From: Planctomycetaceae bacterium
GTDB taxonomy: Bacteria; Planctomycetota; Planctomycetia; Planctomycetales; Planctomycetaceae
Assembly: GCA_041398745.1 (NCBI GenBank)
Contig: JAWKUB010000005.1
Coordinates: 542,497-606,496, forward strand
Direction of reading: 5' to 3'
DNA: 64,000 nucleotides
Below the pieces are notes generated by a model that worked only from the letters and a program-made list of their open reading frames with translations, was not told where the DNA came from and made no database searches. A program made the position numbers and the translations under genes. This document shows, in pieces, positions 16,901-48,257 of the stretch. Each line of letters starts with the position of its first letter. Position 1 is the stretch's first letter.

Positions 16901-16926
16901 CAACACCACTTCTTTGGAGCATAGCA

Positions 16927-19900: not shown

Positions 19901-21696
19901 AATCAGAGTACTTTGATCCGCATACGATGGAACTCGCCCTTGCGTATGCCGCTGATGGTCGGCCAATTACTGTTACCATGGTAACGGCATCACCATTGCC
20001 GGAATTGCAGATACTCCTTCACCCGACTCTGGTTGACACAAGCGTCGGACAGGATGCAATTGAGCTCGACCGCTTCGTTGACACCTATGCTCGACGAGAG
20101 CCCTTCTGTCAAGAGGCCGAAAACCGAGTCCGGTCGGCGAAAGACCTTTTTAGACTTGCTTGGGCCGTCCGAGTTCTCCAACTGAAGGAATATGGTTTCG
20201 GCGCAGTGCAGAGCCCTGACGAAGGAGCAGAGCTTCTTCAAATCTATGCGGCAACCTTCGCCGCTGCCTCTCGAATCCTCGAAGAGGCAGACGAAACCTA
20301 TTTGGTCGCGAAGCAAAACGCCAAGACTCTAAAGGACACCCCAGTGTCCGATCGCCCGGAGTTTTTCGACAAAACACTAGTTGCATACACAGAACGCGCG
20401 TTGGCATCCGACTCGTTTGAGGGATTTCGGGATTCAATTCAAACGGCAGCAAACAACGAAATGAGGTCTGTGATCCGCAAGTCCGGTGGCAGCAATTTCG
20501 AGTGGCTTGTGCAAAACCCAAAAGCGTGGCGAGTTTTCTCCGAAGAGAGTGCGAGATTTGAATCTGCGTTGAATACATACAACCAGAACGTCAAACGATA
20601 CAACAACCGAGTAAACCCTTCACGCACAGACTCTATTCTGGACCGGCTACGAGGTGGTGCATTTGACATAGAAGACTATCAACGATTGCAGGATTCACAT
20701 CAAAACGATCAGCTCGCAAATTCGATAGACGAGCAACTGGCATGGCTGGAAGCCGAGAAACCCAGGATCGAGCAGCAACAAAAGAGTCTGCAAGAGCAAC
20801 AGGAGCAGCTTGAAAAATACCTGTTCCCTGTGGTCTCAGGCACAATCACATGGAGACTACCTCCGGCAGATTTCGAAGTCTGGAGCGGCGTTCGCGAGTC
20901 GAACTTCGAATGCACCCTGGAGAATCTGACTCAACCTAGTGGTGACGAGTTGCCGTTTCGCTTCATGCTGCAAACAGCATTTACATCCCCTGCCTTCTTT
21001 GACGCATCCGGCGAACTAATCGAGGACGAAGAGGACGACAGAAACGAGGATGACATTCCTCCGTGGACGTTTGAAGCGATATCTGACGAGCTGCACCAGT
21101 CTGTGGTTACCAGCGTGACGGAGGAAGAGCGCCTGCTCATCTCTCGCATGTCTGAATTCACGCAACTCCAGCGCATTTTCCGCCTCTTCTTTGAATCCAA
21201 TCATCCGCAGTTGCATCGTCTCGTTGAGCTCAACTCGGAATTGAACCAAGCCGTTCCAGTGAAATTGGTTCGGACATCCCGATGGAATGCTCGGCCCGGG
21301 GCTCTTGAGATAATCTTGCAAATTCAACTTCTCGAGTTTGGCCCGAAGTTGGAAAACACTGAAGCTAAGTCACAGTTGGACGAGCTTTCAGAGCTAGTGA
21401 CTGAGCAGTTGAATGCTGTCGCGACGCTCCGTGAATTACAAGCTGCTGACGAGAGTGACTGGAGTGAGGGCTGGGACAGATACCTCAGGGCAATTGAAGC
21501 TGGAAGAAAGAAGCTTCCAGACATTGTGTCCAGCCTCGGCAGTATCAGTCGGGCCCAACAAGAAAACAAAGTGCTGGAACAGCTGCACCAAACGGCTAAT
21601 CAGTACTCTTTGGCGGTGCAGTTGAGGTCCGAGCTTGGGGTCATAGAAGACGATCGCGCGGTTTTGAAACGCTCGCTTGATAGGGGGAGTGAGTGA
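16927..21696 (+). CDS. 1589-aa hypothetical protein with ~4 N-terminal TM segments, a long coiled-coil, a Pro-rich linker and a large C-terminal region of unknown fold
   Basis: Hydrophobic stretches VGVTSAAAFAFISWVLL, VCGICVVASLVVAGILSALWL, WWIASTGLLIAGMAIIA and YLVIASTLLTLLSTVGWM. The middle is A/E/Q/L-rich, followed by NPPPPDIPDFGGPTAPKPPKGPAPSG. No P-loop or catalytic motif was seen. Confidence 0.75.
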   Translation: MDSFPPIRVLHVGVTSAAAFAFISWVLLPRLRQQFALPADPVATVGRAGRYAMFAWLRNVCGICVVASLVVAGILSALWLSSGAIERDSLDSSRALFASARDILKAVRPFWWIASTGLLIAGMAIIARARARRGCEEFYAEEVKRQVLRLQEDRENGKLPELPPDDVMRKILEHVHTLDRQLGELLSNSQLQVGDKQRLKKIAEAEIGKLVAMYQWRDLERRVEWQNIDIASALIAPSPDAGNSFKSRMARFLTSKSTVSFLDRGTRYLVIASTLLTLLSTVGWMSVPAASVATSEHDRIEDLQAAFNAIDEVVAAGVLPASEDEEAQAAIDEATAALNQIDQEVSAGSSDLDDLEQRIASKVKAYKSDVGAADALFEEIDSAFKEQETRKPPRSPLDIPADAPGNADRVAELEAQLAELSELSQKAESLEAKPASTIRRDLTAATEKVGESTRQSAVFETQIDQQRRRIRAAQAKQDARFENRLSALNAKRAELERYASNPALEADAAKALDLVDGNKEVVEQRVRKSKTLFGAAEARVAASSRAVESHLAKAEGVSAMIPGSVDAPPWVDTLPNLVREIRRRYGQTKTELTLEAARLNPRPLTLTSEEVTLKNHALDVIESQMAEAFEGLSPNAREMTSSSKSTAAAEQILRSHAAKFDARNVPGTYLSADGLPPETREFLKAFTERGPPEQSLRGKLNRILEGVIPSLSESQRAELRSTQPRRVTATMSEFVSPLFRSATMETLPDVFHPAIDAANELVTELASGTSLKPTFESPLTELESGRALQQNLRRVSSSFEQSVVTEAIQRSPATLETERIVSRNADGPQLANEQNISKAFEDYFDRVPESVRRSRQVPGISAVESFDSHFPGQNPPPPDIPDFGGPTAPKPPKGPAPSGSGSASLARRIEQNLYRSTRLSSQAAQNLRFTSSQSFSRARSFSRLRGFRRIGGVLIGRELEGDPQITDIDWDWNTDDDRIRLRIKGNDGTWHESEYFDPHTMELALAYAADGRPITVTMVTASPLPELQILLHPTLVDTSVGQDAIELDRFVDTYARREPFCQEAENRVRSAKDLFRLAWAVRVLQLKEYGFGAVQSPDEGAELLQIYAATFAAASRILEEADETYLVAKQNAKTLKDTPVSDRPEFFDKTLVAYTERALASDSFEGFRDSIQTAANNEMRSVIRKSGGSNFEWLVQNPKAWRVFSEESARFESALNTYNQNVKRYNNRVNPSRTDSILDRLRGGAFDIEDYQRLQDSHQNDQLANSIDEQLAWLEAEKPRIEQQQKSLQEQQEQLEKYLFPVVSGTITWRLPPADFEVWSGVRESNFECTLENLTQPSGDELPFRFMLQTAFTSPAFFDASGELIEDEEDDRNEDDIPPWTFEAISDELHQSVVTSVTEEERLLISRMSEFTQLQRIFRLFFESNHPQLHRLVELNSELNQAVPVKLVRTSRWNARPGALEIILQIQLLEFGPKLENTEAKSQLDELSELVTEQLNAVATLRELQAADESDWSEGWDRYLRAIEAGRKKLPDIVSSLGSISRAQQENKVLEQLHQTANQYSLAVQLRSELGVIEDDRAVLKRSLDRGSE

Positions 21697-23141
21697 GACT
21701 TTTCATCTCCTATAATCGTGACAGCGGCAGCAACTACGCGGAGTTCCTCCTATCAAAGATCGATTCGGAGGATGAGTGGGAGTCGCTCATTGATATTGAA
21801 CCGTCGGTAGTCACGAACGATTACTGGGATGATCTGGTTACTTCGCTAAAGTTTTGTGACTGTGTGCTCTTTGTGGCCACACGAGGAGCGTGCGACTCAG
21901 ATGAATGCAAAGCGGAGGTGCGTTACGCAAAAGCAGAAAACAGGCCCGTCATTATTTGTGAATTCGAAAAGATCGAGTCGTACCCTCGCGGATTTGAATC
22001 ATTCCATATAGTCGAATTTCATGCCAACTTTTCCGTCGGGTGGGATCGCCTTCGAGATGTTATCCTGGCAGCAAAAGCGGCCAAGGCGTCCAAACCGTCA
22101 ACGGGGTCGTCGACGTCACGCGATGCGGATAACACAGAATCAACAACAACTTCGGTCCAGCGGCGTCCCAACATCAACATCACTGGAACCGTATTCACAG
22201 TCTTGGCGGCTTTTGTTTTCGGTGGTTTAAGCGGTGCGAAGTATTTCTCAGCTTCTCCTGTTGCCGAAATCCCAGCGGAGAAACCCTTTCCTGAAAACAC
22301 CATGAAAAAAACAGAGGGTGATGCGCCCCGGGAATCATTTGATAATGAATTTGAGGCCCCTGAGCCAGAAAGAACGTTGGATTTCCTCGCAATGAATGAA
22401 GAATGCGCGGGGATTATTGGTGCTGAAGAGCTAAGCACCCTGCCATTGAAAACAAAGGACCAGCTGCTCCGGGAAATATTTGGACCAGAGATGCAGGATA
22501 AAAACATTACGATTAAAAAGGTAACCGCAGCGCTTACCGAATTAGAAGAAACTGAATCCGCCTTTAAGCAACTGCATGCTGCAGTCCGCAACGCAATACA
22601 GGACCCTAACACCAACGTAGCAATTGTCAATGAACTTACTTTGGCCCTTGGCGAAATCCCGAATGCTGACGTCAGTGCCCCGGATCCGGTGAGGGAAGCC
22701 CAATTCAGTCGATTCGCTGGTGTCAAGAGCACTCTTGGCGACTGTTCTCTTCAGCTTGCAAATGCAAATCATGTCCTGGCTGCAGTTAGGAATCATCCGC
22801 AACACATAGACCGAATCATAAAAGAAATCCGGATAGAAGACCTTGGGATAGACGGGCTTTTCGTTGTCTCCGTAACTATCGATGGCGGAACGGAATCAAC
22901 AATGCTATGTCAGCTGGAAGTCCGGGGAGGTGTGATTGAGAATCCTCTCTATGAACGCCGACGACGCGAAATGGAATTGAGGGGTTATATGGATCGAGCG
23001 GGAATACCGGGTCTCATTCCAACGGGAGTTCCAAAGCTCGGGAAGTTGGCCGAGGAACTTGCCGCGAACGAAGGCAAGGTTTTTGACGTGCCCCCCAGGA
23101 AGCATATGAGAGAGCCTAATGAATCTGCTGGGGGCCACTAG
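21693..23141 (+). CDS. TIR-domain protein with one TM helix and a ~290-aa C-terminal domain
   Basis: MRLFISYNRDSGSNYAEFL... and DECKAEVRYAK (candidate catalytic Glu). The TM candidate is ITGTVFTVLAAFVFGGLSGA. A GTG start overlaps the upstream stop (GTGA). Confidence 0.75.
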   Translation: MRLFISYNRDSGSNYAEFLLSKIDSEDEWESLIDIEPSVVTNDYWDDLVTSLKFCDCVLFVATRGACDSDECKAEVRYAKAENRPVIICEFEKIESYPRGFESFHIVEFHANFSVGWDRLRDVILAAKAAKASKPSTGSSTSRDADNTESTTTSVQRRPNINITGTVFTVLAAFVFGGLSGAKYFSASPVAEIPAEKPFPENTMKKTEGDAPRESFDNEFEAPEPERTLDFLAMNEECAGIIGAEELSTLPLKTKDQLLREIFGPEMQDKNITIKKVTAALTELEETESAFKQLHAAVRNAIQDPNTNVAIVNELTLALGEIPNADVSAPDPVREAQFSRFAGVKSTLGDCSLQLANANHVLAAVRNHPQHIDRIIKEIRIEDLGIDGLFVVSVTIDGGTESTMLCQLEVRGGVIENPLYERRRREMELRGYMDRAGIPGLIPTGVPKLGKLAEELAANEGKVFDVPPRKHMREPNESAGGH

Positions 23142-25728
23142 CGATCTCAGGGTATTCCTCTCGTCGACATTTGTCGACATGATTGCCGAGCGGGACGCGC
23201 TGCAACGGACAACGTTCCCCAGCCTGTACCGTACCGCCCCTGTCGACGTCATCCCAATTGATCTGCGGTGGGGGATACGCGACGAAAATACTATAGGAGG
23301 GAAACTGATCGATCTGTGTCTCGACTCCGTATCACGAAGCTCAGTCTTTGTCGGGATGATTGGTCAACGGTACGGAGCTGTGATAGCAGATGAGATTCTG
23401 GCAACTAAGCTGCCGCAGCGAGACTATCTCAAGCTAGGGCTATCGCTGACAGAATGTGAAATTCGGGCGGCCTTTGCAATGAAGGAAAGTGGCGAGGGGC
23501 CGCAGCATCTCTTCTTTGGATTTCGTAAAAATGACTGGACGTTCTTAGATGAGCGGGTGCGTCTTTTGCTCCCCGACGCGTTTCGAAATTATGCACCCTA
23601 TGAATTTGCAGATGATGATCCGGCTCTACTCGGGAAGCTTGCCGATCTAAGGGATTTTATCCGTTCTCGTGACTGCACGGTCATTGAGTATGCGAATGCC
23701 GACGAGTTTGCAGAATGTGTGCGCCGCGAACTCATACAGATCGCCCCTCGGCTTCGTCAGTACTCCGGCCCGCATTACAGAGGTAACGTAGCTAACAGCG
23801 CTGCTCAGTCATTGATCGATGATTGGCGCAGGGGCAAACGGCTGTTTCTGATCCCAACTCCGCGACGCCTACTTCTGGTCGGGGAATCAGGTATTGGAAA
23901 AACACATGAAGTAACTCGATACCTTTCTGAGAATTCTGAGAACATCCTATGCGTAGTCGCTGACCAGTTCAGTTCGATGGAGGGCTGCCTTCAGTGGCTC
24001 GAAGATCGGCTTCAAGTGAGTGGCCACGAATGTGCCAACGCTGCCAGACCGATTCGCCGCCGGGTATTCGAGCGACTTGTGTCTTTCGGTAATTCGGACC
24101 AGAACTCCTTGATTCTTGATGGCCTTGAAGAGCTATCGGTGATTCCCGATCTGTCATGGCTCCCGGATTGTAGGTTGCGGGTTCTTGCGACGACCACAAC
24201 CGATTCGAAATGGCACGCAGCATTTGAGCGCCTGGATTTCACCGTGGCCGATTTCCCTGCTCTTTCAAATCGCGAAGCATTGAAACTCTCCACTGATCTT
24301 CTTGCGAGGTACGACAAGCAGGAATGGCTATCCATTACTCAGGCTGTCAGAGTAAGGGGGCTTAGGAATCCTCAAATGCTCGCAACACTGATTGGCGGGC
24401 TGCATCGCGAGGTTTATGAAACAGTCGATGAAACGGTAGATGACTACGCGGACTTTTCGTCTGCATCAAGAATGATTGCTCGAACGTGGGGCAAACTTGT
24501 CGAAGACCTTGAAAGAAGTCCGGAAGATGGTGTTGTTCGCCGAATACTCCATTTTGTTTCTATCAGTCCTGCAGGAATTCATTCCTACGATCTCGAAAGA
24601 TTGCTGCGCACGACGGTCAAAGCGAATACGAGCATTGCGATGTCCAACCTTCGACCTTTCCTAAAGGAAGACAGTATGTTCATCCGGTTGCGATCAGCAG
24701 CCTTCAATGCAGCACGGCGACACCTAAACCCAACCCGTGAAGAATTGCGACAAAGGTGGAATGAGTACGGCGAGTTTTTCAGTCGTCGTGACGACATCCC
24801 CTTGAGCAGGCGTTGGGCAGCGTTACGTGGGTTGGGCGAACGGAGTAGCAATGACTCGTGGTGCCTCTCGCTGTTAGCTTCTGCTCCGCGGGAAATCATG
24901 GAATTGGCTTTCAGCAATGTTCGATTATTCCTGCATACCACTACCCGGGACGCTCAACTCAAGATTTTGGACGTTTTGTACGGCAAAGTCCCTGCGGAAT
25001 CACTCGAACTCGCAGCTCAACTTGGCCACACTGCTCTTGCCGCAGAGCGACTAGAACGTTTGCCGCCGCATCAATTTCGATTAGCTGTTATTCGCGTGGC
25101 CCCTGCGCTGATCGACTCGAACACAACGGAGACTGCAAGGCGTCACCTGATGCACTTGCTTCCGCTGGAAATGCCTGTAGCCGAACGGATTCAGACACTT
25201 CTCCTGCTTGCACACTTGGAAGTCAACGAAGGAAATCTAAAGGTTGCCGAACGCATACTTGACTCCTGCGAAGGTCACACTCTAAATGAGGACCCGCTTT
25301 CCCTTTCTAGGTGCTGGATTACGCTGTTTCGCAGTCGAATTGAATTCGCCGTGGGTGCACAAATCCCGATCCAAAGAATGATCAATCTACAGCAGACGTT
25401 TCTACAACACGAGGAGCAACGAGGAGCAGGATGGGCCGCGGTATGGATGTTTGACGTTTACGAAAAACAGGGTAACTACACGGAGGCAAACATGTCGGCG
25501 ATGACGCTGATTGGTGAGCTGGAGCAATCAAAGCTCCTGGGTCTGTACCGCATTATTTCACTAAGGCTTGCACACATGCTCGTCAGCCTTGACAGAGATT
25601 TGAGCTTGGCATTGCGATTGTTGGACAACTACGAACGGATCGGAACTGGGCTTTCGGATAATCGAAAACAAAGTGCCGACACCGAGTCTCTTAGAGCTGA
25701 GATCCTGCGTCGATTTGGAGGAGTTTAA
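23119..25728 (+). CDS. DUF4062-like N-domain + NACHT-like STAND NTPase + C-terminal helical (TPR-like) repeats
   Basis: LRVFLSSTFVDMIAERDALQ (DUF4062 signature), Walker A LLVGESGIGKTH, Walker B SLILDGLEEL and RVLATTT. The C-terminus is alpha-helical and repeat-like. The gene overlaps the TIR gene by 23 nt. Confidence 0.75.
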   Translation: MNLLGATSDLRVFLSSTFVDMIAERDALQRTTFPSLYRTAPVDVIPIDLRWGIRDENTIGGKLIDLCLDSVSRSSVFVGMIGQRYGAVIADEILATKLPQRDYLKLGLSLTECEIRAAFAMKESGEGPQHLFFGFRKNDWTFLDERVRLLLPDAFRNYAPYEFADDDPALLGKLADLRDFIRSRDCTVIEYANADEFAECVRRELIQIAPRLRQYSGPHYRGNVANSAAQSLIDDWRRGKRLFLIPTPRRLLLVGESGIGKTHEVTRYLSENSENILCVVADQFSSMEGCLQWLEDRLQVSGHECANAARPIRRRVFERLVSFGNSDQNSLILDGLEELSVIPDLSWLPDCRLRVLATTTTDSKWHAAFERLDFTVADFPALSNREALKLSTDLLARYDKQEWLSITQAVRVRGLRNPQMLATLIGGLHREVYETVDETVDDYADFSSASRMIARTWGKLVEDLERSPEDGVVRRILHFVSISPAGIHSYDLERLLRTTVKANTSIAMSNLRPFLKEDSMFIRLRSAAFNAARRHLNPTREELRQRWNEYGEFFSRRDDIPLSRRWAALRGLGERSSNDSWCLSLLASAPREIMELAFSNVRLFLHTTTRDAQLKILDVLYGKVPAESLELAAQLGHTALAAERLERLPPHQFRLAVIRVAPALIDSNTTETARRHLMHLLPLEMPVAERIQTLLLLAHLEVNEGNLKVAERILDSCEGHTLNEDPLSLSRCWITLFRSRIEFAVGAQIPIQRMINLQQTFLQHEEQRGAGWAAVWMFDVYEKQGNYTEANMSAMTLIGELEQSKLLGLYRIISLRLAHMLVSLDRDLSLALRLLDNYERIGTGLSDNRKQSADTESLRAEILRRFGGV

Positions 25729-25734
25729 GCAGAT

Positions 25735-26946
25735 CTAGAGAGGAGACGTGGCCATTCCAAAGACTGCATCCGCAGTTCGAATGTTGTCAAGCTTCGTTCC
25801 CGCTCCACATAGGCGAGTCTTCACTTCTGAAGCCTGAATTCTTCCTGTGTCGTTCATTAGACGCTGCCCCCATAGCGCAGCCAGACCAGCAACGTGCGGC
25901 GCAGCCATGCTTGTCCCTGACATCAAAGTAGGTGAGCCGTCGAGGCCTGCTGAAACGATTGATACACCAGGGGCGGCAATAGTGGCTCCATGGTTAGAAA
26001 ACCAAGCGATAGAATAGTCTTGTCCCTCTGCCGCAGTGCCGGTTTCTGAGTCGTTTCCTCGCCCAATTGCACTTACCGAAACGACTCCCTTTGCTGCCGC
26101 AGGAGGCGCTACCTGAATACTGTAGTCAGGACTGATGTGCCGACGACTTTCATTTCCGGCTGCGGCTACCAAGAGCGTACCTCCCCCAATCAGGTCACGA
26201 GCTAAGAGCCAGTCCGACAGCTGCCGAAACACCTCTACATTTTCAACGTACGCAGAGAGAGCCGTTGATGTTGCCAGATCCGCAGGGACGCCGTTGTCTG
26301 TCAGCTGCTTTGCATAACCCGGGAAGTCCATTCCGAGGGACATGGAAATTACATTCGCCCCTTGCTCGACCGCGGCCCACTGAATTGCTGCGGCGATGGT
26401 TTCTGAAGATCCTCCGCCTTTCCCGAGGACTTTCCCAATAATTGCCTTCGACACGCCGCTTGCGACGCCGATTCGAGAACCGCCTGCAGTACGACCAAAG
26501 ATCGTCCCAGCGCAATGTGTTCCATGCCCATCAGTGTCTTGAGGAACGTCCCTTGTAAAGTTCTTAATAATCATCCGATCTGCGATGTGTTCGAATGCTT
26601 CGAGGCCTTCAAATTGCTCACAGATTCCTGTATCAAGTACAGCGACGGCAACGCCCTCTCCGCTTAAAACCGACTCATTGGCGCGGACTGCCAAAATTCC
26701 CCACGAGCTCTCTCTGTCTGTTCCAGTTGGCGAAAATGAACTCAACCGCTCTGGGACACGTGGATACGACATTGGCATCGGTGGTGCCATCGCCAATAGG
26801 GAATCGTCCCTGCGTGCATCTGCTATTTCAGCAGCGGTCAACTTGAAAGTTTCTATTCCGATTTCATGCTGCGCGACGTCGAACCTGCTCGCTCGCACTC
26901 GACTACCAGACGACTGTGACTTAGCTCTCAGTAAAATGTACTGCAT
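25735..26946 (-). CDS. Subtilisin-like (S8) serine protease with no obvious signal peptide
   Basis: VAVLDTGI (Asp), HGTHCAGTI (His) and GTSMAAPHVAGLAAL (Ser). Confidence 0.85.
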   Translation of the reverse strand: MQYILLRAKSQSSGSRVRASRFDVAQHEIGIETFKLTAAEIADARRDDSLLAMAPPMPMSYPRVPERLSSFSPTGTDRESSWGILAVRANESVLSGEGVAVAVLDTGICEQFEGLEAFEHIADRMIIKNFTRDVPQDTDGHGTHCAGTIFGRTAGGSRIGVASGVSKAIIGKVLGKGGGSSETIAAAIQWAAVEQGANVISMSLGMDFPGYAKQLTDNGVPADLATSTALSAYVENVEVFRQLSDWLLARDLIGGGTLLVAAAGNESRRHISPDYSIQVAPPAAAKGVVSVSAIGRGNDSETGTAAEGQDYSIAWFSNHGATIAAPGVSIVSAGLDGSPTLMSGTSMAAPHVAGLAALWGQRLMNDTGRIQASEVKTRLCGAGTKLDNIRTADAVFGMATSPL

Positions 26947-26969
26947 ATGCTTTCGCTCACTTCAGAGAT

Positions 26970-27233
26970 TCAGACATCAACAGGCCACCACTTTCCGTCT
27001 GCATTATCGACGAATGTCGCGATTTCTCCGCTTCTGAGACGGACCTTGTGCAGCTTATCCAAGCGTTTCACGATTGCAGCGGACGAGGGTCTCTTGTCTT
27101 CGGTCAGCGGAAGTAGCTGCCTGATCTCTGATGGGCTGAGCCCGTGGACTTCAGCGTCCATCAAGGTCTTCAAGATCAAGGCATCGAACTCATCGACATT
27201 AGCAGATCTGCGGCGATATTGGTAAAGAAGCAC
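26970..27233 (-). CDS. Small winged-helix-like protein
   Basis: 87 aa. DALILKTLMDAEVHGLSPSEIRQLL...AAIVKRLDKLHKVRL fits a wHTH pattern. It is co-directional with the S8 gene, 23 nt upstream of it. Confidence 0.45.
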   Translation of the reverse strand: MLLYQYRRRSANVDEFDALILKTLMDAEVHGLSPSEIRQLLPLTEDKRPSSAAIVKRLDKLHKVRLRSGEIATFVDNADGKWWPVDV

Positions 27234-27260
27234 TGCCAGCCCCCAAGGCTCGTGAGTGTT

Positions 27261-27674
27261 TCAAACTGGGGGAGTTGCGATTTCGCGATACTCGACGTAA
27301 GTCGTTGACTCCCTTGAAGCGACAGTACGATCGAGACATTGCCCATTCAATGCGGTTTCAAAAACTGACCGGCCCTGTGCCAGCCCCCCAATAGCGGCAG
27401 CCGGGAGCGTCAGGAAACTTGCGAATGCACCAACATTGATGATGGCCTCGAACACAAATTCAGGTACAGACCCCTTCGAAATTCGGAATCCACTACCAAG
27501 TAGGTTCTTTTCCGACGTCCGTTCGGTCGATGTGCTTTGTTGACTCCCTACAGGCGCTGAAGAGGGGTTCGATAGAAGCTCAGCGGCAACTGCGGAAAGT
27601 TCAATTTGGACAGCTGGAGGAAGTTGCTGGCGTTCTAGGGAAGCTTGGACTTCAGCGGCTGTAATTTCCGACAT
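27261..27674 (-). CDS. Small hypothetical protein with one hydrophobic segment
   Basis: Internal ATG start (MSEITAAEVQ...). The hydrophobic stretch is AIINVGAFASFLTLPAAAIGGLAQG. It is the first gene of the minus-strand S8 operon. Confidence 0.45.
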   Translation of the reverse strand: MSEITAAEVQASLERQQLPPAVQIELSAVAAELLSNPSSAPVGSQQSTSTERTSEKNLLGSGFRISKGSVPEFVFEAIINVGAFASFLTLPAAAIGGLAQGRSVFETALNGQCLDRTVASRESTTYVEYREIATPPV

Positions 27675-28027
27675 TTCGCACGTTCTCCCACACGTTCCGT
27701 TTGCTCTGCAAGTCACCAAAGTAGGCAGCTTTCGTCTCCGAAGTCAACGGATGCCCTATCGTACACTATCTCGTTCGTGATGTCCTGTGGCCAGTTCGTC
27801 GAATGTTACTCAAACTCTCAGTCTAACAGACCTGAGAAGAGTTAGTTTTCGGCGATCTGGGAGCACCATTGGCAGGTAAGTGCGCAATGAAGTTCCCCAC
27901 TACCTGTTGAATGGAAACTGCAACAAGTCCGCAATTCCGCTGCGACCCTTCAAGAACCAATCAAGAATGTCGAAGTGACTGGCACATCTGCTTGCGCCGC
28001 GCAGAGAGAAGCGCTATCTTACCTCTT

Positions 28028-28867: not shown

Positions 28868-29212
28868 ATGAGCGTGGTTAAGAAAGTATCGCTTTCAAAT
28901 GGCGAACATGTGTTGGTTGAAATGGTAGAAGCCCAACTACCTGATGTGACTGAAGGAAGCAAAGCGGCAGTAGAGTACACGGACGGCAGGCTGGTCGACG
29001 TTCTGAATGCATTCGAATTATTAAAGCCAACCCTGGGAACCGTTTTGAGGTCGGTCCACGATTCAATATCCGAGTCAGGGCCATCTGAATGGGGAGTCGA
29101 GTTTTCGATTGGATTCAAAGGGACGGTCTCCCCGTTGCCGGTTATCGTGACCGGTGAGTCTAGTGCCTCGTTGAAAGTGCACGCCAAGTGGAAGGCAAGC
29201 ACTAACGGCTGA
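28868..29212 (+). CDS. Trypco2-like (trypsin-co-occurring, CU044_2847-type) small protein
   Basis: ~114 aa, immediately upstream of a trypsin-like peptidase. The pattern ...HVLVEM...WGVEFSIGFKG...ASLKVHAKW recalls that family. This is recognition from memory, not a search. Confidence 0.5.
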   Translation: MSVVKKVSLSNGEHVLVEMVEAQLPDVTEGSKAAVEYTDGRLVDVLNAFELLKPTLGTVLRSVHDSISESGPSEWGVEFSIGFKGTVSPLPVIVTGESSASLKVHAKWKASTNG

Positions 29213-29280
29213 ACGATATGACCGACCATTTTGGCCGGTTTGTGTGAAGTCCTGTACCTTTCGACGATTCGCTTTCAACC

Positions 29281-30639
29281 ATGTCTCAGCAAGCTCAAGA
29301 TGCACTAGGCCCAATCTATTCCCTAGTTAATGATCAAAACAAGGTCATCGCGACGGCGTTCCGCTTGGGCAACTCCCGTTTCCTTGCTACGGTCGGCCAT
29401 GTCTTTGGAGCGGCCCATGTCTTCGCAGAGGCAGGAGGGCAATCTCAAAGCTGTAGGAGCGGACAACTCAAACTTCGCAAGGATGGAGAGAGGATTGATT
29501 TTGCCTTGCGGCAGAAGATGTTTGATCCTGATTGTGGAGTCGATTTTGCATTTATTGAAGTGGCTAGTGACCATGAATTGCCAACCCTCCGTGCGCCGCT
29601 GGGCGTTAGCCTGAGTGAGGATGTGTTCACCATCAAGAGCATGAGGGCCACTGTCTGCGGCAACGATGCTGCCCTGGGGGCTAGATCAATCGAAGTAAGA
29701 GTAGAAGGCCCAACGTTCCCCAGGGTCGACGAAGAGAAAAACGCGGTTATCGGGTTGAGTTGTCAGGTAGGGCTTAGTAATGGCTGCAGTGGCGCACCAA
29801 TTGTGAATGACCAAGGTCAGGTCGTCGGCATTTTTTCCTATCGATTCACCCCAAGCAGTAGTGATTCGAGGGCAGGATATTTTGCCATGCCTTTGTTCCG
29901 ATGCTTCCATCTGCATCCCACCTTGCTTCGATGCACTGAGCTACTTGATAGCTCCTGCTCTGCCAACTCGATGCCTTTTAACTCGGACAAGTGCCAACAT
30001 CTCGGGAAGGGCTTCGCTAGGAACTGGACGGACGAGCAAGTGATGCAATGCAACAGCATGAACCTTACTTGTAGATCTCACAAACCTGCTGTTGCATTAG
30101 TGGCCGCTATTACTAAAGCCTCGGCAGGCCGCCAAGTCTCGGCCCCGTTGCTCGATCAACTATTGAACATGTATAAGTTGATTCATACCTGTGGTGAAGA
30201 TGTTTCACGAAAGAAGTACGGAGCTCGATGCCGATATCACATTGACCAAATTCATCGGCTGGCAAAGCGTGTTTGTAGATCGACGTTGGCAGTCGATGCT
30301 GAAGCCGGGTTGGCAAACGGGCTCATGCGAGCCCTCCGGCTCCCAAAGAGTCTGAAGCCAGAGACGACGAAACTGGCTGAAACAATCGAGCGGATTGCTG
30401 AGTTTGAGCTCGCGCCTCGAAACGGACGTCGTGATTCTATGCCCGAAGACTTAGGCTGGTGGTTAGGCGACTTTTCGGATTCATTTGGCCATATCGTCGG
30501 CTGCCTGTCACAGGAATACCGACCTAGTGCCCCCGAGACTCGATACTTACTCGAGGCCAGCGAGGCACATGGAGTCAATCACGATGAATTCTCCGGTTTG
30601 GTCTACCAGCTTGCTAGCATCATTTCCCCAGCAGAATAG
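29281..30639 (+). CDS. Trypsin-like (S1/PA-clan) serine peptidase fused to a ~230-aa unknown C-terminal domain
   Basis: LATVGHVF (His), DFAFIEV (Asp) and SNGCSGAPIVNDQGQVVGI (Ser). Confidence 0.75.
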   Translation: MSQQAQDALGPIYSLVNDQNKVIATAFRLGNSRFLATVGHVFGAAHVFAEAGGQSQSCRSGQLKLRKDGERIDFALRQKMFDPDCGVDFAFIEVASDHELPTLRAPLGVSLSEDVFTIKSMRATVCGNDAALGARSIEVRVEGPTFPRVDEEKNAVIGLSCQVGLSNGCSGAPIVNDQGQVVGIFSYRFTPSSSDSRAGYFAMPLFRCFHLHPTLLRCTELLDSSCSANSMPFNSDKCQHLGKGFARNWTDEQVMQCNSMNLTCRSHKPAVALVAAITKASAGRQVSAPLLDQLLNMYKLIHTCGEDVSRKKYGARCRYHIDQIHRLAKRVCRSTLAVDAEAGLANGLMRALRLPKSLKPETTKLAETIERIAEFELAPRNGRRDSMPEDLGWWLGDFSDSFGHIVGCLSQEYRPSAPETRYLLEASEAHGVNHDEFSGLVYQLASIISPAE

Positions 30640-31107
30640 ATGAAGTGCGTTACGATGGACAATGACTATTGGAACGACGCAGTTGTTGAAGCCAAGAGAA
30701 ATGGATGGGTAGCTCCAGACTCTGACGATTTCTTTGAAGTGCTAAATGAGACAGCCGAACAAAGTAAGGTTGGGCCGGTCTTGCATGCGCCCTTGTTGGC
30801 AATGATTTCCGCAATGGCAGTGCTACTCGCTTCAGACGACAAGCCGTACTTCTGGCTCGTTCCAATCTTTGACTCGATTGCCGACGATCCAGAGTTGACC
30901 GGAACGGAATTCAAGCAATCCGCACGGTTAGGTTCGCTCTTAAATCAGGAGCAGTTCAGCCAAGTAATTGCGTACGCCGAGCGCTTCTCAGCGATTGCGA
31001 TAGTGGCGTCTCTCCTGCCGATCCAAGACGGTAGGCGGGCCCGTTATGGGGCACCATTTCGATATAGCAAAGGGTACTTCGGGGATCTCGATTGCGGTCT
31101 CGACTGA
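30640..31107 (+). CDS. Hypothetical 155-aa protein
   Basis: The ATG directly follows the upstream stop (TAGATG). No motif was seen. Confidence 0.55.
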   Translation: MKCVTMDNDYWNDAVVEAKRNGWVAPDSDDFFEVLNETAEQSKVGPVLHAPLLAMISAMAVLLASDDKPYFWLVPIFDSIADDPELTGTEFKQSARLGSLLNQEQFSQVIAYAERFSAIAIVASLLPIQDGRRARYGAPFRYSKGYFGDLDCGLD

Positions 31108-31319
31108 GATCATGTGCAATTCGGATGGTTTGTAGCGAGGCGATTGTACAATTGGCAGGGTTCCCACCGTCTCTGTCGCGTGTATCATCTTTGAGTAGCG
31201 ATACTGGCACATCCACTTACGAGATGTGAATTTCACCAATTTTGCGTTTGCCAAACTTCAGTGCTACCTGCCAATTGCGGGTATGCATCTCCCATAGCTC
31301 ATCGTGGAAAGTTTCACAG

Positions 31320-34300
31320 ATGCCCCTCTCCTACGACGACTTTGTAGTCCTCTTCTCCTTTCTCGGGGAATCAGAAACAATTCGAATAGGCAAGAATCCT
31401 CAATCGAATACACCTGATCGCGGAGCCAGTTACTCGCGGTTATTTTATGATACTAACCAGCACTTTACCTCTGCGGTTTGCTCACACTTGGAGCGATTAC
31501 GGTCGCGGTCGAGCGAACCGGACTGCGATGCACCATACCTGTACAACCCAGCATGTTTTGCGACGTTTGGGCATGTCGATAGCCTAGCAATCGTTTTATT
31601 GGATGATTTTGATACTGCGTTCTCTCTCACAGCTGACATTGACTCCCGCGTCGAGCAAGCAGCTATTGCGTTCTCGCCTAAGCTTGGATCGCTTGATCTA
31701 AGTGCGGCGGAACTTGTTCGCTTCCAATCGCTTAAGCACCTCCTTGTTGGTGCTCGCCCAAATCGCCAAACCGACAACCAGGGAAAGCCATATTACAATG
31801 CAACAACCCATTCATTTCAACAGCGATTGCCATTAATGATGGTAGCAAAATTCTCTGTCAGTGGGCTCGGAAAAATGGTTTCGGCACTTGAGATGGAGAC
31901 TGCGTTGTATCAGGCGGGAGTTCGACGCATTAACAGGGTGTTCGACCAAGCAGCCAAAGATTCAGTATCGCTCAAGACTGCTCCCAACCTAGTGAGTCCG
32001 ATTGATCTCGACTCAGTGCGAATCTCTCTGCTCGACACGCAGGGGAGTGCAGAATTCACGATGGCAATCTTCTGTACCAATTATTCTGTTGGAGGACTTG
32101 CAGTATCTGCACTACGGTCCTTGACACTTCGAGACCTTTTTCGCGAGTCACCTGATCTTGCTCGGAAGTTTCGTGAATCCAAAGTCCGATCATCGCTTCA
32201 GGAATTACTCAAACGAAACAATGAGTCGGCTCAATTTGACGATTTCTTCGACAATCATGTTTTTTCGCGAAGCTATACAACGGCCGGTGTTGTCGCCGAG
32301 TGTCTTCGCGAGGACGCCAGTCTGTCGCAGATATCTGGTTTTGTCTCCGTAACTCCAAACTTCCAAGTGGCACCTGGGCATACGGGTGAAGCTGAACGGA
32401 GCGTTTGGCAGGCTCTGTCCGCCACAAATAAGAATCGACCTTTTCGTGTTCGCGACATTGGAGAACGGAGTCGGTTTCACGTACTATCGCTCGGCCGGTA
32501 CGATATGGTTTTGCACCCCAGCTTAAGCACCAAACATGTCATTGGCGAGTTCCCAGCTCATACGACCCAAGAGTTTCTTCGCCATTTGGCGACCTTCTAT
32601 CAACACCTAGGCGTGGTCGCCCCCGACTGGATGTCCTTGGTGGGCCCTACCAACTGGGAACCCAATGATGTTCACGAAACGATAGTGGCGGAGACATCAT
32701 GCTCAATCGAGATTCCGGTTCCGATGGTCAAGTTAATCCATCCAGATGGTTCGTCAGGGGCGATGCTGCCGAGAAGGCGGCGAAAATCCCACACTCCGTT
32801 CCTTCCAGCACTTGCACGATTGCAATTCGAGATCTTCCACCACACGGTCCCCAATCGAATGGCAGTTTTCGATATTGACGGCCTAGAATTCCACATGAAA
32901 CGCCTTGGCATTCCACGAGGGCTGCGCCGGTCCATTCGATACGTGTTTCAAAACTTTCGCTTCGCATTGGCGGACCCTGTATTATTCTACAAAGTTCTTG
33001 ACCTGTATGATTCGCTAGCAACACTATACCGAGCCCTTTGTACCCCATCCTGTAATGAGAGTAATTCGGCGCTTATTCCAGAAGAGACCCTCGCCGACAT
33101 TGCACATTTCATGCGGGCTCTGCAGCAGGCTATGTCTTACCGAGTGTCGAGCCGATCACCATTCGTTGAGGAGAGAGATTTTGCGATTGAGTTTCGTGGG
33201 CTATTGTCCCAGATTGTAGCAGCAGTCGACGCACCGCTTAAGTGTGGTGTCGGGATGACCAAAGACTGTATCGAGCATCGGTACGGTGTTCGCCCCCCTA
33301 AAGACACCGTCGGTCGCATCAGTAACCTGACTCTTGGGCGTCAGGTCGAGATCCGGCAGGTACGTTTTGAGGAGAACCTGAGCGAATTGCCTGGCAATTC
33401 CGTTACCTTAGCAAGCGTTGATGTCGGCGTGGATGTGCTCTGCGCCCCAGAGCAGCTTGTATGTCTTTTGCACGAGTCCTTTCACAGTGCCGTGGCAATG
33501 CAGAATTTTTTGCCCGACGACAGGGATCACAGCCGCGATGACTGTTCATTCCACGCGTTGAGGGACCGGCTAGAAGAACTCTTCGTATTGCGGCTGGAAT
33601 TCTTGTTCGTTTTCAACGGCGATTCGCGACTGAATGCCCTACACCATCTTGTCGCCTACGGGACACATCCAATCAGTCGTCCATTGAGCGATCGCGTAAG
33701 TGTCCAAAGATTCCTGGAATGGACTTTGCGAGTCTACGTCTCGACTGCCCAGCCTTCCAATCTCGCAGTCAGTTCGTTGGTTGAGGGCTATTTGCAGTTC
33801 GTCAAGGATTACCGCCAAATTCTTCCACTTGACGATTTTCTAGGGGATTTCTCAAGAGAATTCGACACACTTTGCGTCGGCTACGCGGAAAGATTTACTC
33901 GCTCGGTGATGCCGTGCTTAGCGAAGACGCTGAAGAGTGCCGATGCAGTTTATGAAACGTGGTGGGAGTACGTAAGAGAAAAATCAAGCGCAAAGGGCTC
34001 GATGGATCGCGAGGCTATCATTGCATTGATTGAAGCGACGGTAGACGATTGCATGAGCAACGGAATACCGGACGTTGAAGCCGCCGTTCCGTATGAGGCG
34101 AAGCAGTGGGACAAGATTTCGTCCTTCTACTACATCTGTGTCGTCTTTCGGCGATATTTTCATTTTCTTTTTGAGGGCGTTGATGGCAGCGTTCAACTCT
34201 TCGTCAGGCCGAATAACGGTACAGTTCGAAGGCCGGCGCATCCGAGTTTTCGATTTGAACACGGTAGCGCCGTGTCACTGTGTTCTGACTTTGAGCAGCG

Positions 34301-34433
34301 CCGCAACAGAGTGCAGCGTCATGTGCAGCTCTACAAGTACCTTTGGGGAGTTGCATGCCGACTCAATGGCGAACGGTTCGTGGACTTGGTCGACGCAGTT
34401 TCCAGCGCAGGTCGAAATGACAGTTTGACTTGA
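31320..34433 (+). CDS. Hypothetical ~1037-aa protein with a single HExxH motif
   Basis: Long uninterrupted ORF; an alternative TTG start lies at 31242. LLHESFHSAVAM occurs at about nt 33470-33490. No P-loop was seen. Confidence 0.7.
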   Translation: MPLSYDDFVVLFSFLGESETIRIGKNPQSNTPDRGASYSRLFYDTNQHFTSAVCSHLERLRSRSSEPDCDAPYLYNPACFATFGHVDSLAIVLLDDFDTAFSLTADIDSRVEQAAIAFSPKLGSLDLSAAELVRFQSLKHLLVGARPNRQTDNQGKPYYNATTHSFQQRLPLMMVAKFSVSGLGKMVSALEMETALYQAGVRRINRVFDQAAKDSVSLKTAPNLVSPIDLDSVRISLLDTQGSAEFTMAIFCTNYSVGGLAVSALRSLTLRDLFRESPDLARKFRESKVRSSLQELLKRNNESAQFDDFFDNHVFSRSYTTAGVVAECLREDASLSQISGFVSVTPNFQVAPGHTGEAERSVWQALSATNKNRPFRVRDIGERSRFHVLSLGRYDMVLHPSLSTKHVIGEFPAHTTQEFLRHLATFYQHLGVVAPDWMSLVGPTNWEPNDVHETIVAETSCSIEIPVPMVKLIHPDGSSGAMLPRRRRKSHTPFLPALARLQFEIFHHTVPNRMAVFDIDGLEFHMKRLGIPRGLRRSIRYVFQNFRFALADPVLFYKVLDLYDSLATLYRALCTPSCNESNSALIPEETLADIAHFMRALQQAMSYRVSSRSPFVEERDFAIEFRGLLSQIVAAVDAPLKCGVGMTKDCIEHRYGVRPPKDTVGRISNLTLGRQVEIRQVRFEENLSELPGNSVTLASVDVGVDVLCAPEQLVCLLHESFHSAVAMQNFLPDDRDHSRDDCSFHALRDRLEELFVLRLEFLFVFNGDSRLNALHHLVAYGTHPISRPLSDRVSVQRFLEWTLRVYVSTAQPSNLAVSSLVEGYLQFVKDYRQILPLDDFLGDFSREFDTLCVGYAERFTRSVMPCLAKTLKSADAVYETWWEYVREKSSAKGSMDREAIIALIEATVDDCMSNGIPDVEAAVPYEAKQWDKISSFYYICVVFRRYFHFLFEGVDGSVQLFVRPNNGTVRRPAHPSFRFEHGSAVSLCSDFEQRRNRVQRHVQLYKYLWGVACRLNGERFVDLVDAVSSAGRNDSLT

Positions 34434-40599: not shown

Positions 40600-41715
40600 T
40601 CATGCATCTTGCCAGCGAGTGGACGGCAAGTTTTCCATTAGGTGTTCGCTCCCCTTGTCGATAGCAGTTTGTCTTTCATTTTCTGTTATCGGGATGAACC
40701 AAAGCAGATTCACTGGATCCCCGAACTGATGGTCAGTGGGTAATTCGTTCAAAGCTGGATGGCTCTTTGTCACTAGCCCATGTGTGTATTTCGGATTTTT
40801 CCAGGAGCCGCACGGAATCGTGTGACCATCGCCAAACCAGGTGAAATGGCTCCAAGGCAGGCCACTCTGAGCGCTCAAATAAGAATCGAACGCTCGTTCG
40901 TCGTCAGCTGACCATGTTTTTGGTAGCACCACACCCAATTCAATTCTGCGGATCAGTTCGGGGTGTTCGGACAACGAATCAACGTTCGGCTGAGGCCTCA
41001 AACTGAGCCCAATCGTGGAATGAATGGAACGGTCCTTTTGTGGAATTCGTATGAGTGCTTTAGGTGGCCAGCAACCGCCATCAATGGCGTAATAGATCGA
41101 ATGACTTCCGAATTGTTCTTCGAGGTACGACAGTCTTGCGGACTGGAATGTGGGCCAGAATTCCTGACTATCCCACTGTTCCCAGTAATCTGCTGCGTCG
41201 CTGAACCTCTCAACCAGGACATTCTCCGGAGACAATTCCCAAGCCAGGGGACCTTGTCCCACGCATTCGGTTGAATAGCCATGGAACCCTTCAAAACCAC
41301 TCCACGGAGGGATGATGCTCAGCAGTTCTTCGTCATCATAGAGTGCGGCACCGTTCCCTTCAGGAAGCCAGACGACGCGTAGGCTATCAGATCGTAACGG
41401 TGACAGTCCCTCCGGATGTCGACAGAACGGTGCGGGATTAGCTGGCGGCAACCCTTGTCGCATTGAGCCCACATCAAGCGCTTCAGGCGCTGGGGTCAGG
41501 TTCCGCACCCACACCGACTTCATTGGGAACTCGATTTTAGGAGAGCCATACAGATAGAAGTAAACGGCTTGATCAGTCGACTCAACTACAGCCTGAACGT
41601 TGCCGTTCGGATTCACCTGTTCCAGTAAGACATCATTCACCGCGCAACTCCTTGAACAAAAGTTCTTCTCCTCAACTAAGCGGAACGGGTGGTCTACCGT
41701 GATCGCCAGTCCCAT
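40600..41715 (-). CDS. Suppressor-of-fused (SUFU)-like, immunity-type protein
   Basis: The C-terminal half (...IHSTIGLSLRP...IELGVVLP...VNLLWFIPITENERQTAIDKGSEHLMENL) fits the bacterial SUFU-like domain pattern. The ORF track start at 41763 runs through a REP element, so the ATG at 41715 is preferred. Confidence 0.55.
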   Translation of the reverse strand: MGLAITVDHPFRLVEEKNFCSRSCAVNDVLLEQVNPNGNVQAVVESTDQAVYFYLYGSPKIEFPMKSVWVRNLTPAPEALDVGSMRQGLPPANPAPFCRHPEGLSPLRSDSLRVVWLPEGNGAALYDDEELLSIIPPWSGFEGFHGYSTECVGQGPLAWELSPENVLVERFSDAADYWEQWDSQEFWPTFQSARLSYLEEQFGSHSIYYAIDGGCWPPKALIRIPQKDRSIHSTIGLSLRPQPNVDSLSEHPELIRRIELGVVLPKTWSADDERAFDSYLSAQSGLPWSHFTWFGDGHTIPCGSWKNPKYTHGLVTKSHPALNELPTDHQFGDPVNLLWFIPITENERQTAIDKGSEHLMENLPSTRWQDA

Positions 41716-41744
41716 CACTTCACTCCGTTTCGTTCCGGGTCGTG
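41712..41744 (+). repeat. REP-like element, family 1, copy 2
   Basis: CCATCACTTCACTCCGTTTCGTTCCGGGTCGTG. Confidence 0.8.
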
Positions 41745-41759
41745 TCACCCGTCCCGGAA

Positions 41760-42170
41760 TCAATCGAAGTCCTCGTCGAAAGGTTCATATTGAATTGGCT
41801 TCTTGCCTGTTTCCTTGACGACACGCGGGTACTTGACCCCAGCTGCTGGATTCTGTGGACGTTTTCGCGACTTGCTCACCCTGAACAGCCAACTGTCACC
41901 GTAATCGAACAGATAAAACAACTGCTGCTTCGGCGGAAGAGGAAACAGGTTGGCGAGCTTGGTTTCGTAGAGACCGCCATTCTCGTCATCGTATCGAACC
42001 CGATTGTAAGCCCGCACGTGACGGGCGACGTAGAATTCGTAGAGGTGGTCATTATCGAAGTTCACTGCCTTCTGGATGGCCCAATGGAGATGTTCGAGAA
42101 CAGATTCGTCCTCGATTTCAATGTCAGCACTCCATTCAGAGCCCAGTCTGATGGTCAGCGTGATAATCAA
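41760..42170 (-). CDS. pRiA4b ORF-3-like family protein
   Basis: LHWAIQKAVNFDNDHLYEFY and FYLFDYGDSWLFRV match the characteristic LHxxIQxAFGW..HLxxF / YxYDFGDxW pattern. Confidence 0.65.
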   Translation of the reverse strand: MIITLTIRLGSEWSADIEIEDESVLEHLHWAIQKAVNFDNDHLYEFYVARHVRAYNRVRYDDENGGLYETKLANLFPLPPKQQLFYLFDYGDSWLFRVSKSRKRPQNPAAGVKYPRVVKETGKKPIQYEPFDEDFD

Positions 42171-47963: not shown

Positions 47964-48257
47964 TCCTCAGCCGGTTCCCTCGAGCGCCCAGCCACCACGG
48001 CAAGGCCAAAGAAACGGTAGAGGATGGGGGTGGGGAAGTCTATGGTGTGGGGATGGTGACTGAGTCGCAGTTGAAGCTGGAGAGTAACTTCAGGGACATG
48101 TGCGTGAGTTGGTGGACACGATAAGCTGTGACTGAGAGTTGATTGTCTACCAGAATCTCTGTCAAACTCTATTAATAATGGATCAATTTCTTTTGCCAAT
48201 GCCGACCGTAGTTTGCACAGGATTTTACGATCAAAGAAAGCGGGTTTGGCCAGATCG

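Follow-up and report, generated by a model that had tools for sequence, protein, structure and literature searches.

The locus and its four genes

The stretch of DNA considered here (hereafter the window) comprises 64,000 nucleotides of the genome of a Planctomycetaceae bacterium (assembly GCA_041398745.1, contig JAWKUB010000005.1, positions 542,497 to 606,496 of the forward strand). Within it, the list of open reading frames (ORFs) places four co-directional genes on the + strand at 28868-34433, encoding in order a small Trypco1 protein, a trypsin-like serine peptidase, a 155-amino-acid protein (p155) and a very large protein of an unannotated family, here called BIG. The features of this locus are as follows:

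28868..29212, + strand: Pepco/Trypco1 small protein of 114 amino acids (Pfam Trypco1 PF19493, NCBIfam NF041216), a predicted latent pore-forming effector, its function taken from doi 10.1101/2025.11.14.688446
29141..29146, + strand: codons of Val92-Ile93, candidate cleavage position 21 residues before the Pepco C-terminus, read from the sequence and proposed by analogy with Ile97 of the 117-amino-acid SsPepco
29281..30639, + strand: trypsin-like serine peptidase of 452 amino acids (Pfam Trypsin_2), with a catalytic domain at residues ~18-200 and a probably helical, unmatched C-terminal domain at residues ~211-452
30640..31107, + strand: p155, an acidic protein of 155 amino acids with its start codon directly against the peptidase stop codon (TAGATG), supported by codon composition and by a position that matches the small gene before BIG in relatives
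31108..31319, + strand: intergenic gap of 212 nucleotides, scanned for hairpins and promoters
31320..34433, + strand: BIG, 1037 amino acids, with an AlphaFold2 model; its family, which is unannotated, comprises 356 clusters
33471..33485, + strand: HESFH (H718, E719, H722), a putative metal-binding and catalytic site, conserved in relatives and lying on the helix 714-728
33576..33578, + strand: E753, a candidate third metal ligand on the helix 741-763, its position conserved

The first protein matches Pfam Trypco1 with 51.5 bits (cut-off 24.6, E 1.7e-13) and the CU044_2847 family of NCBIfam, NF041216, with 41.6 bits (cut-off 23); an alternative ATG at 28820 would extend it to 130 amino acids. 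Pepco is the name given in a 2025 preprint to Trypco1 and Trypco2 proteins, which are reported there to assemble into heat- and sodium dodecyl sulphate-stable beta-barrels of nine or ten subunits (bioRxiv 10.1101/2025.11.14.688446). According to the same preprint, a tail of ~2 kDa is clipped off by the neighbouring trypsin-like protease, which cuts behind a conserved isoleucine (I97 in a protein of 117 residues); the shortened barrel is toxic, probably because it forms a pore in the membrane, and the Pepco-protease pair serves as a portable output attached to many sensors (10.1101/2025.11.14.688446). In the window protein a Val-Ile pair (V92-I93) places I93 at 21 residues from the C-terminus by reading of the sequence; in the Trypco1 protein of a related locus described below (L048) an isoleucine aligns one column earlier than I93, SsPepco itself standing outside this alignment.

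The peptidase gene follows after 68 nucleotides. Residues 26-184 of its product match Pfam Trypsin_2 (36.7 bits, cut-off 27.6), and the catalytic triad, read by eye and aligned with the peptidase of L048, is intact, with its histidine in AAHVF (H46), its aspartate in DFAF (D87) and its serine in GCSGAP (S170). The remainder of the protein, residues ~211-452, gave zero matches in Pfam, NCBIfam, PADLOC and the PDB sequences, and a word-based search with this C-terminal domain returned no relatives. A motif scan detected no Walker A motif in any of the four proteins, Pfam detected no vWA or MoxR domain among the window genes between 23 and 35 kb, and neither Pfam, NCBIfam nor PADLOC detected a sensor domain in the peptidase tail, p155 or BIG. 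Other hallmarks of described conflict systems (VMAP, iSTAND, GAP1, EACC1/2 with caspase, TRADD-N) were likewise absent from the window genes by Pfam, and the window holds no tRNA or Rfam features.

An earlier note on this DNA had described the four co-directional genes, the intact H/D/S triad, an unmatched C-terminal peptidase domain, a 155-amino-acid ORF at a TAGATG junction, a gap of ~210 nucleotides before the large gene and the lack of any NTPase (nucleoside triphosphatase) motif, and each of these stands, the C-terminal domain measuring ~240 amino acids. Two of its statements require revision: the small protein, which it called Trypco2-like, is Trypco1 by Pfam, and the Trypco mechanism, which it took to be uncharacterised, has since been described as that of a cleavage-activated pore in the 2025 preprint cited above.

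The BIG family

BIG is identical to a 'hypothetical protein' (R3C18_14095), encoded on an 829-kb contig of a Planctomycetaceae metagenome-assembled genome (MAG) at NCBI. Its reading frame could be opened by a TTG at 31242, yielding 1063 amino acids, or by the ATG at 31320, yielding 1037, and the ATG is backed by conservation of the N-terminus that it defines, with Y5 present in 127 of 134 sequences. The NCBI gene model, at 944 amino acids, begins at Leu94 and drops this conserved N-terminus (31320-31601), including Y5, G84 and D87, each of which is kept in more than 90% of relatives; the public model thus starts too late and is corrected here.

Searches that depend on word indexing find next to nothing of the family. 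Those with BIG itself returned only BIG and P0002, a relative with 24% identity in which the HExxH motif is kept, and word-based searches with the window peptidase and with a 50-sequence BIG alignment likewise gave nothing beyond the protein itself and one relative. The family is visible because exhaustive HMMER searching was used instead: a two-sequence profile matched 356 representative clusters (defined at 50% identity) at E <= 1e-3, of which 278 lie at E <= 1e-10 and 190 at E <= 1e-30. The aligned relatives that reach 950 amino acids, 131 in number, span 953-1389 amino acids (median 1086), most of the family falling between 1000 and 1150, and the best non-self relatives are ~30-32% identical to the window protein. 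Nine of ten loci recovered from GTDB species representatives belong to Planctomycetota MAGs (Gemmataceae, Planctomycetaceae, Phycisphaerae, Tepidisphaeraceae and Sedimentisphaerales among the taxa represented) and one to Hydrogenedentes. No relative was found in IMG/VR, and tblastn of BIG and of the Trypco1 protein against plasmids found none. BIG itself has no match in Pfam, NCBIfam, PADLOC or the PDB sequences, and the family appears to be undescribed in Pfam 2025, NCBIfam 2026, PADLOC 2023, PDB 2026 and the full-text literature searches made.

The only HExxH motif in the four window proteins, HESFH at BIG residues 718-722, is nearly invariant across an alignment of 150 family members (H718 in 142/143, E719 in 139/143 and H722 in 141/143), and the position of E753 is occupied by glutamate in 134 of 142 sequences and by aspartate in a further seven. 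Also near-invariant, in the N-terminal half, are Y5, G84, D87, D95, N254, H313, G340, G353, H354, G392, D395 and H491.

An AlphaFold2 model of BIG built from 50 family members has a mean predicted local distance difference test score (pLDDT) of 84.8 and a predicted template modelling score (pTM) of 0.91. In this model residues ~1-480 appear to form three ferredoxin-like units of beta-alpha-beta-beta-alpha-beta topology, and Foldseek matches in the PDB are confined to this N-terminal part (~430 residues), where they comprise chlorite dismutase, HemQ and DyP structures (E 7e-3 to 0.2, probability 0.97-1.0, TM ~0.5 on the target, 9-13% identity). Helices make up most of the C-terminal half, in which a three-stranded sheet at 664-703 is followed by the HExxH helix (714-728) and by the helix that carries E753 (741-763), an arrangement that, in the model, corresponds to a gluzincin active site. 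Modelled on their own, residues 486-1037 reached a pLDDT of 76.9. A profile search of the PDB with BIG gave helical noise only, Foldseek against BFVD gave nothing, and the catalytic region matched no peptidase family by Pfam or NCBIfam, PDB sequence or profile search, or Foldseek. Its designation as a putative metallopeptidase thus derives from the motif and the predicted local architecture, not from family membership.

Gene neighbourhoods of BIG relatives

To place the window locus among its counterparts, 57 related loci were collected from metagenomes and genomes, of which ~45 are distinct, the others being redundant or very short; neighbourhoods were counted in the non-redundant loci, 35 in all, whose sequence extends 1.5 kb or more upstream of BIG. 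In 30 of the 35, BIG is preceded by a co-directional ORF that encodes 100 amino acids or more and ends within 300 nucleotides of the BIG start, and in 25 of the 35 a further co-directional gene lies directly before this small ORF. The small gene is separated from BIG by -35 to +281 nucleotides (median ~17), with many overlaps of 1-4 nucleotides. The small proteins, ~110-340 amino acids long, diverge fast, and at least 13 of them nonetheless share a C-terminal AAxWGxL motif, ~30-45 residues from the end, at which BIG might dock or cut. Small genes with this motif stand upstream of BIG in L003, L005, L007, L019, L021, L023, L025, L026, L028, L036, L039, L038 and L043, and a hidden Markov model (HMM) of the motif added small ORFs of L014 and L027 that had been overlooked.

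The gene directly before the small gene is usually the one that varies, and in the window this position is held by the Trypsin_2 peptidase with its 240-amino-acid tail. Relatives likewise have an enzyme or output domain ahead of a helical C-terminal region, the domain being a trypsin in L048 and another one elsewhere. Among the relatives, the upstream gene encodes (Pfam matches unless otherwise noted):

L007, L038, L043: Metallophos
L019, L030: HD-CE
L039: TIR
L041: SEFIR/TIR
L014, L017: KAP NTPase
L046 and the contig of P0022: Sigma70_r4
L036: TCAD9
L021: a weak cyclase-like match
L047: a weak CN_hydrolase match (16 bits, below cut-off)
L001-L005: E-K-C motifs, read by eye
several further loci: no match

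Neighbourhoods of this kind mark a core that stays constant while the effector or output gene beside it is exchanged. They also bear on the part played by BIG itself. Modules that pair a protease with an effector include large zymogens, such as metallo-beta-lactamase (MBL) nucleases and alpha/beta hydrolases, that are cleaved by a neighbouring protease, and the conserved HExxH...E of BIG would suit a latent metallopeptidase or toxin activated in this way by the trypsin-like protease, alongside or instead of Pepco. We regard BIG as effector as unlikely, given that BIG is the constant member, and the gene in front of it varies among classical effector domains that are mostly not proteases (TIR, Metallophos, HD-CE, KAP, sigma-70 region 4), leaving those loci with no protease to activate BIG; the window, moreover, already encodes a dedicated effector in Pepco. 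BIG is more likely a sensor or regulator than an effector, because it stays constant beside effectors of very different kinds, some of them non-proteolytic.

One must also consider that the three-gene unit around BIG could be a regulatory or stress device outside immunity, for instance one in which proteolysis releases a sigma factor or an enzyme, and which in the window has become coupled to a protease. The sigma-70 region-4 genes of some relatives speak for this, as do the resemblance of the BIG N-terminus to haem enzymes (chlorite dismutase, HemQ, DyP), which might serve as sensors of redox state or of a small molecule, and the lack of BIG relatives in viral contigs or plasmids. The repertoire of first genes (TIR, SEFIR, HD-CE, Metallophos, KAP, Pepco-protease) is, however, a classic conflict-system effector set; the first gene changes even between mutually nearest sampled BIG proteins (P0018, P0012 and P0013, ~35-37% identical); and the surroundings are of defence type both in the window and in L039, where a SIR2-STALD gene is present. 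A non-immune device accordingly seems to us to have only a small chance of being the right description.

Several further neighbours of BIG were recorded as observations in their own right. The genes listed above for their E-K-C motifs encode proteins of 500-670 amino acids with FPE...(H/R)K...IC(K/A)D motifs reminiscent of the Glu-Lys-Cys triad in nitrilases and CN-hydrolases; a CN-hydrolase identity for those of L001-L005 was rejected, as it would rest on motifs read by eye and on the sub-threshold match in L047. In three other relatives the usual small protein is replaced beside BIG by a small hydrophobic protein with an HExxH of its own (e.g. AVHEAVHV ... GSP). The positions of the two sets, and of three further neighbours, are:

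L001 899-2836 (- strand): E-K-C-motif neighbour, divergent from BIG
L002 2888-4891 (- strand): E-K-C-motif neighbour, divergent from BIG
L003 7321-8847: E-K-C-motif neighbour
L004 6078-7817 (- strand): E-K-C-motif neighbour, divergent from BIG
L005 7015-8889: E-K-C-motif neighbour
L047 3495-4964: E-K-C-motif neighbour
L006 3295-3978: hydrophobic HExxH protein
L008 8610-9545 (- strand): hydrophobic HExxH protein
L009 8778-9707 (- strand): hydrophobic HExxH protein
L039 5921-7375: SIR2-STALD
L047 1-1214: conjugative type IV secretion coupling protein
L050 18-593: NERD-domain protein

The last three settings are defence or mobile-element contexts.

Linkage of the Pepco-peptidase pair to BIG

When the window Trypco1 protein, peptidase and p155 were compared by phmmer with all ORFs of L001-L045, no matches were found. 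The arrangement of the window does recur at one locus, L048, on a contig from the Logan assembly of SRR15322243 that encodes the BIG relative P0018. Here four + strand genes encode proteins of 127, 426, 184 and, for BIG, 1081 amino acids; the first matches Pfam Trypco1 (24.6 bits, E 3.9e-5, a score equal to the gathering threshold) and the second Pfam Trypsin_2 (53.7 bits). The peptidase domains of the window and L048 are 25% identical (E 9e-7) with their catalytic motifs aligned, and P0018 is ~27-30% identical to the window BIG, among its closer relatives. That the order of four genes has been kept at only ~25-30% protein identity strongly argues for functional linkage and not chance, and very probably all four genes function as one unit. 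The first gene varies: of the BIG relatives nearest to P0018, P0012 (37% identical) is accompanied by a sigma-70 region-4 gene and P0013 (35%) by something else, and the closest relative of the window BIG, P0099 (32%), stands in a 170-423-169-BIG arrangement with no recognisable domains, so that the first gene differs even between nearest sampled relatives.

The position of p155 within this unit was considered in its own right. Its ATG at 30640 directly follows the peptidase stop codon (TAG, 30637-30639), and its G+C content by codon position (0.58/0.40/0.57) follows the pattern of the neighbouring genes and is coding-like. No match was found in Pfam, NCBIfam, PADLOC or the PDB sequences, and comparison with the small proteins of BIG relatives was negative by BLAST clustering, by profile, by the HMM of the AAxWGxL motif and by hhalign. 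A likeness between the C-terminal ...GYFGDLD of p155 and the AAxWGxL motif was set aside as anecdotal.

A similar question attaches to the C-terminal domain of the peptidase, which occupies the position of the tails of first-gene products elsewhere. The tails of L021, L041, L039, L019, L025 and L010 are weakly but consistently interrelated, and jackhmmer joined six relatives and the window tail into what might have been a shared adaptor domain; this candidate was rejected as circular. Against a profile built without the window sequence the window tail scored 5.5 bits, which is not significant, and its first rank among ~4800 decoys and among the window ORFs was in neither case accompanied by a significant score. 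Non-circular hhalign comparison of the window tail with those of the relatives fell below shuffled controls, and an hhalign probability of 97% linking window sequences to relatives was disregarded as circular.

These results allow the case for mere adjacency to be weighed, in which Trypco1 and the peptidase (perhaps with p155) would form a complete module that happens to lie in a defence island beside a BIG gene transcribed separately from the 212-nucleotide gap. The gap does hold one promoter-like site, a weak one of 9/12, and across the scanned region such sites are no commoner than in shuffles; the island is crowded with independent systems; and neither p155 nor the peptidase tail has proven homology with the sequences that take its place beside BIG elsewhere. 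Set against this are the recurrence of all four genes, their order unchanged, in L048 at ~25-30% identity, the co-directional small gene and further upstream gene that accompany BIG in 30 and 25 of the 35 relatives, the lack of a terminator-like hairpin anywhere in 31108-31319, and an extra 240-amino-acid peptidase domain with no other obvious partner. Chance adjacency is in our view very unlikely.

Proposed mechanism

We regard it as somewhat probable that the locus is a four-gene conflict system in which a Pepco-protease output module is placed under a control module made up of BIG and a small protein, and such a system would probably be anti-phage and act by abortive infection. On this model p155 and BIG form the control module, with BIG as the sensor or regulator. 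In the resting state BIG would hold the product of the first gene inactive, probably through the C-terminal domain of that protein and the small protein; on a trigger, BIG would release or activate it. The most likely chemistry for this step is cleavage of the small protein, or of a linker in the effector, by the HExxH...E site, the near-invariance of which suggests that BIG may act by cutting the small protein or an effector tether. The sigma-70 region-4 variants would fit such regulated proteolysis because they recall systems in which an anti-sigma factor is cleaved. In the window, the peptidase so licensed would cut the C-terminal tail from Pepco, with a candidate site around V92-I93, and loss of the tail would convert the pre-assembled barrel into a membrane pore and kill the cell. 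The resulting cascade would run from metalloprotease to serine protease to pore.

A bolder version of this model would see in BIG an undescribed, NTPase-free immune hub: its N-terminal module would sense a ligand of the invader or of stress, perhaps through the ferredoxin-like units, its HExxH site would cleave an inhibitor or tether, and whichever effector lies upstream would thereby be licensed, the window presenting the case of a two-step proteolytic cascade. This generalisation is tentative, and we consider it rather doubtful.

It is worth noting that a number of observations weigh against the four-gene system proposed here. The link of BIG to defence is drawn from its neighbours and not from experiment, and BIG is not matched by PADLOC. 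Among ~45 distinct loci only L048 offers another trypsin/Trypco1 first gene. The HExxH half of BIG has neither a structural neighbour in the PDB nor a match to a known zincin (best Foldseek E 0.64), and the conserved N-terminal site (D87, D95, N254, H313, H354, D395) is given no role in the model. Within the operon, p155 corresponds to the small proteins of relatives by position only, with no tie of sequence, and the same holds for the C-terminal domain of the peptidase and its positional counterparts. Finally, the gap before BIG, at 212 nucleotides, is longer than in most relatives and contains the weak promoter-like site.

As to what the earlier note had made of the locus, its interpretation is partly supported. 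It was right on linkage and on novelty: homologues of the large protein do occur in synteny with a Trypco/trypsin pair, as the order Trypco1, Trypsin_2, small gene, BIG in L048 demonstrates, and no library matched either the large or the 155-amino-acid partner. Its picture of a protease-centred system gives way to one centred on BIG, which fits better, as no Trypco or trypsin gene was seen in the distinct loci other than L048 and other enzyme domains take the position of the peptidase. It had left open whether the large HExxH protein was sensor or effector; sensor is plausible, and effector less likely, given that BIG is constant and the first gene varies. The Foldseek comparison that it proposed for this protein gave the chlorite dismutase, HemQ and DyP matches for the N-terminal part and no structural neighbour for the HExxH half.

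If BIG is a sensor or a licensing protease, bacterial immunity would include a new control logic that does without an NTPase. The model would further supply a testable cascade of metalloprotease, serine protease and pore, parallel to the protease cascades of eukaryotes, and, if true, a function for hundreds of 'hypothetical' proteins of about 1000 amino acids.

Surroundings of the locus

Annotation of the window ORFs marks out a conflict island between ~12 and 35 kb, beyond which, past 35 kb, ordinary planctomycete genes follow (PSD/PSCyt, DUF1501). In addition to the locus described above, the island contains a Ser/Thr kinase, a caspase, a 1589-amino-acid unknown and a TIR protein, a DUF4062/P-loop STAND-like protein and an S8 subtilase. 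The G+C content is 0.50-0.53 over ~7-35 kb and ~0.56 beyond, and this step, together with the transposases, suggests that the island is foreign or fast-turnover DNA. Other features of the window are:

10586-11128 (- strand): truncated transposase
15911-25728 (+ strand): caspase (Peptidase_C14), 1589-amino-acid protein with no match, TIR_2, and DUF4062 with a P-loop (GESGIGKT), STAND-like; head to tail with overlapping ends
25735-27719 (- strand): S8 subtilase (PADLOC 'subtilase'), with no-match ORFs of 152 and 87 amino acids upstream on the same strand
40600-41763 (- strand): SUFU-like protein
43560-44408 (+ strand): complete rve-type insertion sequence transposase
48213-51380 (+ strand): TIR-NB-ARC-TPR STAND protein
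52536-54509 (- strand): 657-amino-acid protein with a metallo-beta-lactamase fold

The genes at 15911-25728 look like a separate conflict operon with a large unknown component of its own, and those at 25735-27719 may be a second module of protease and small effector beside the locus studied here. SUFU-like and metallo-beta-lactamase-fold domains are known from toxin/immunity or defence contexts.

Comparison with known systems

The resemblance of BIG to the CDE superfamily (chlorite dismutase/HemQ/DyP) is one of fold only: proteins with two ferredoxin-like domains align with its N-terminus, and BIG differs from them in having apparently three such units and a conserved residue set of its own. 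To gluzincins and to systems of regulated proteolysis, such as CalpL-CalpT-CalpS and Csx30 in type III CRISPR, BIG is alike in its predicted HExxH helix after a small beta-sheet and a conserved glutamate ~31 residues downstream, and some of its relatives share with regulated-proteolysis systems a sigma-70 region-4 first gene with a small partner gene. Unlike gluzincins, BIG matched no peptidase family, either by sequence or by structure, and its activity is predicted from the motif.

In genetic organisation the closest parallels are offered by systems with a constant component and a variable effector (EACC1/EACC2, ternary and TRADD-N systems; eLife 2020 e52696, 2021 e70394), in which a core is accompanied by a neighbour with a swapped N-terminal enzyme domain, the domains exchanged including TIR, calcineurin-like phosphoesterase, peptidase and ECF-like helix-turn-helix domains (eLife e52696, e70394). 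The BIG family shares with them an enrichment in organisms of Planctomycetota type, and the first gene of one relative matches Pfam TCAD9. The core in the window is, by contrast, a new HExxH protein of ~1050 amino acids, and the core domains that define those systems were not detected by Pfam.

The output half of the locus belongs with the Pepco-protease modules (Kaur et al. 2020, eLife e52696; Evans et al. 2025, 10.1101/2025.11.14.688446), with which it shares a Trypco1 gene directly upstream of a co-directional trypsin-like protease with an intact triad, extra C-terminal sequence on the protease and a defence-island setting; the Val-Ile pair ~21 residues from the end of Pepco may correspond to Ile97 in the 117-amino-acid SsPepco. 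In the cases described, the protease is joined, by fusion or as a separate partner, to STAND NTPases (Avs4), FGE, transmembrane STAND proteins, peptidoglycan-binding sensors or VMAP/vWA-MoxR, whereas the window module has no NTPase, vWA or MoxR and its partners are the unmatched 240-amino-acid tail, p155 and BIG. The Pepco-protease pair is therefore already known, and what is new is its attachment to an NTPase-free and unannotated core, BIG.

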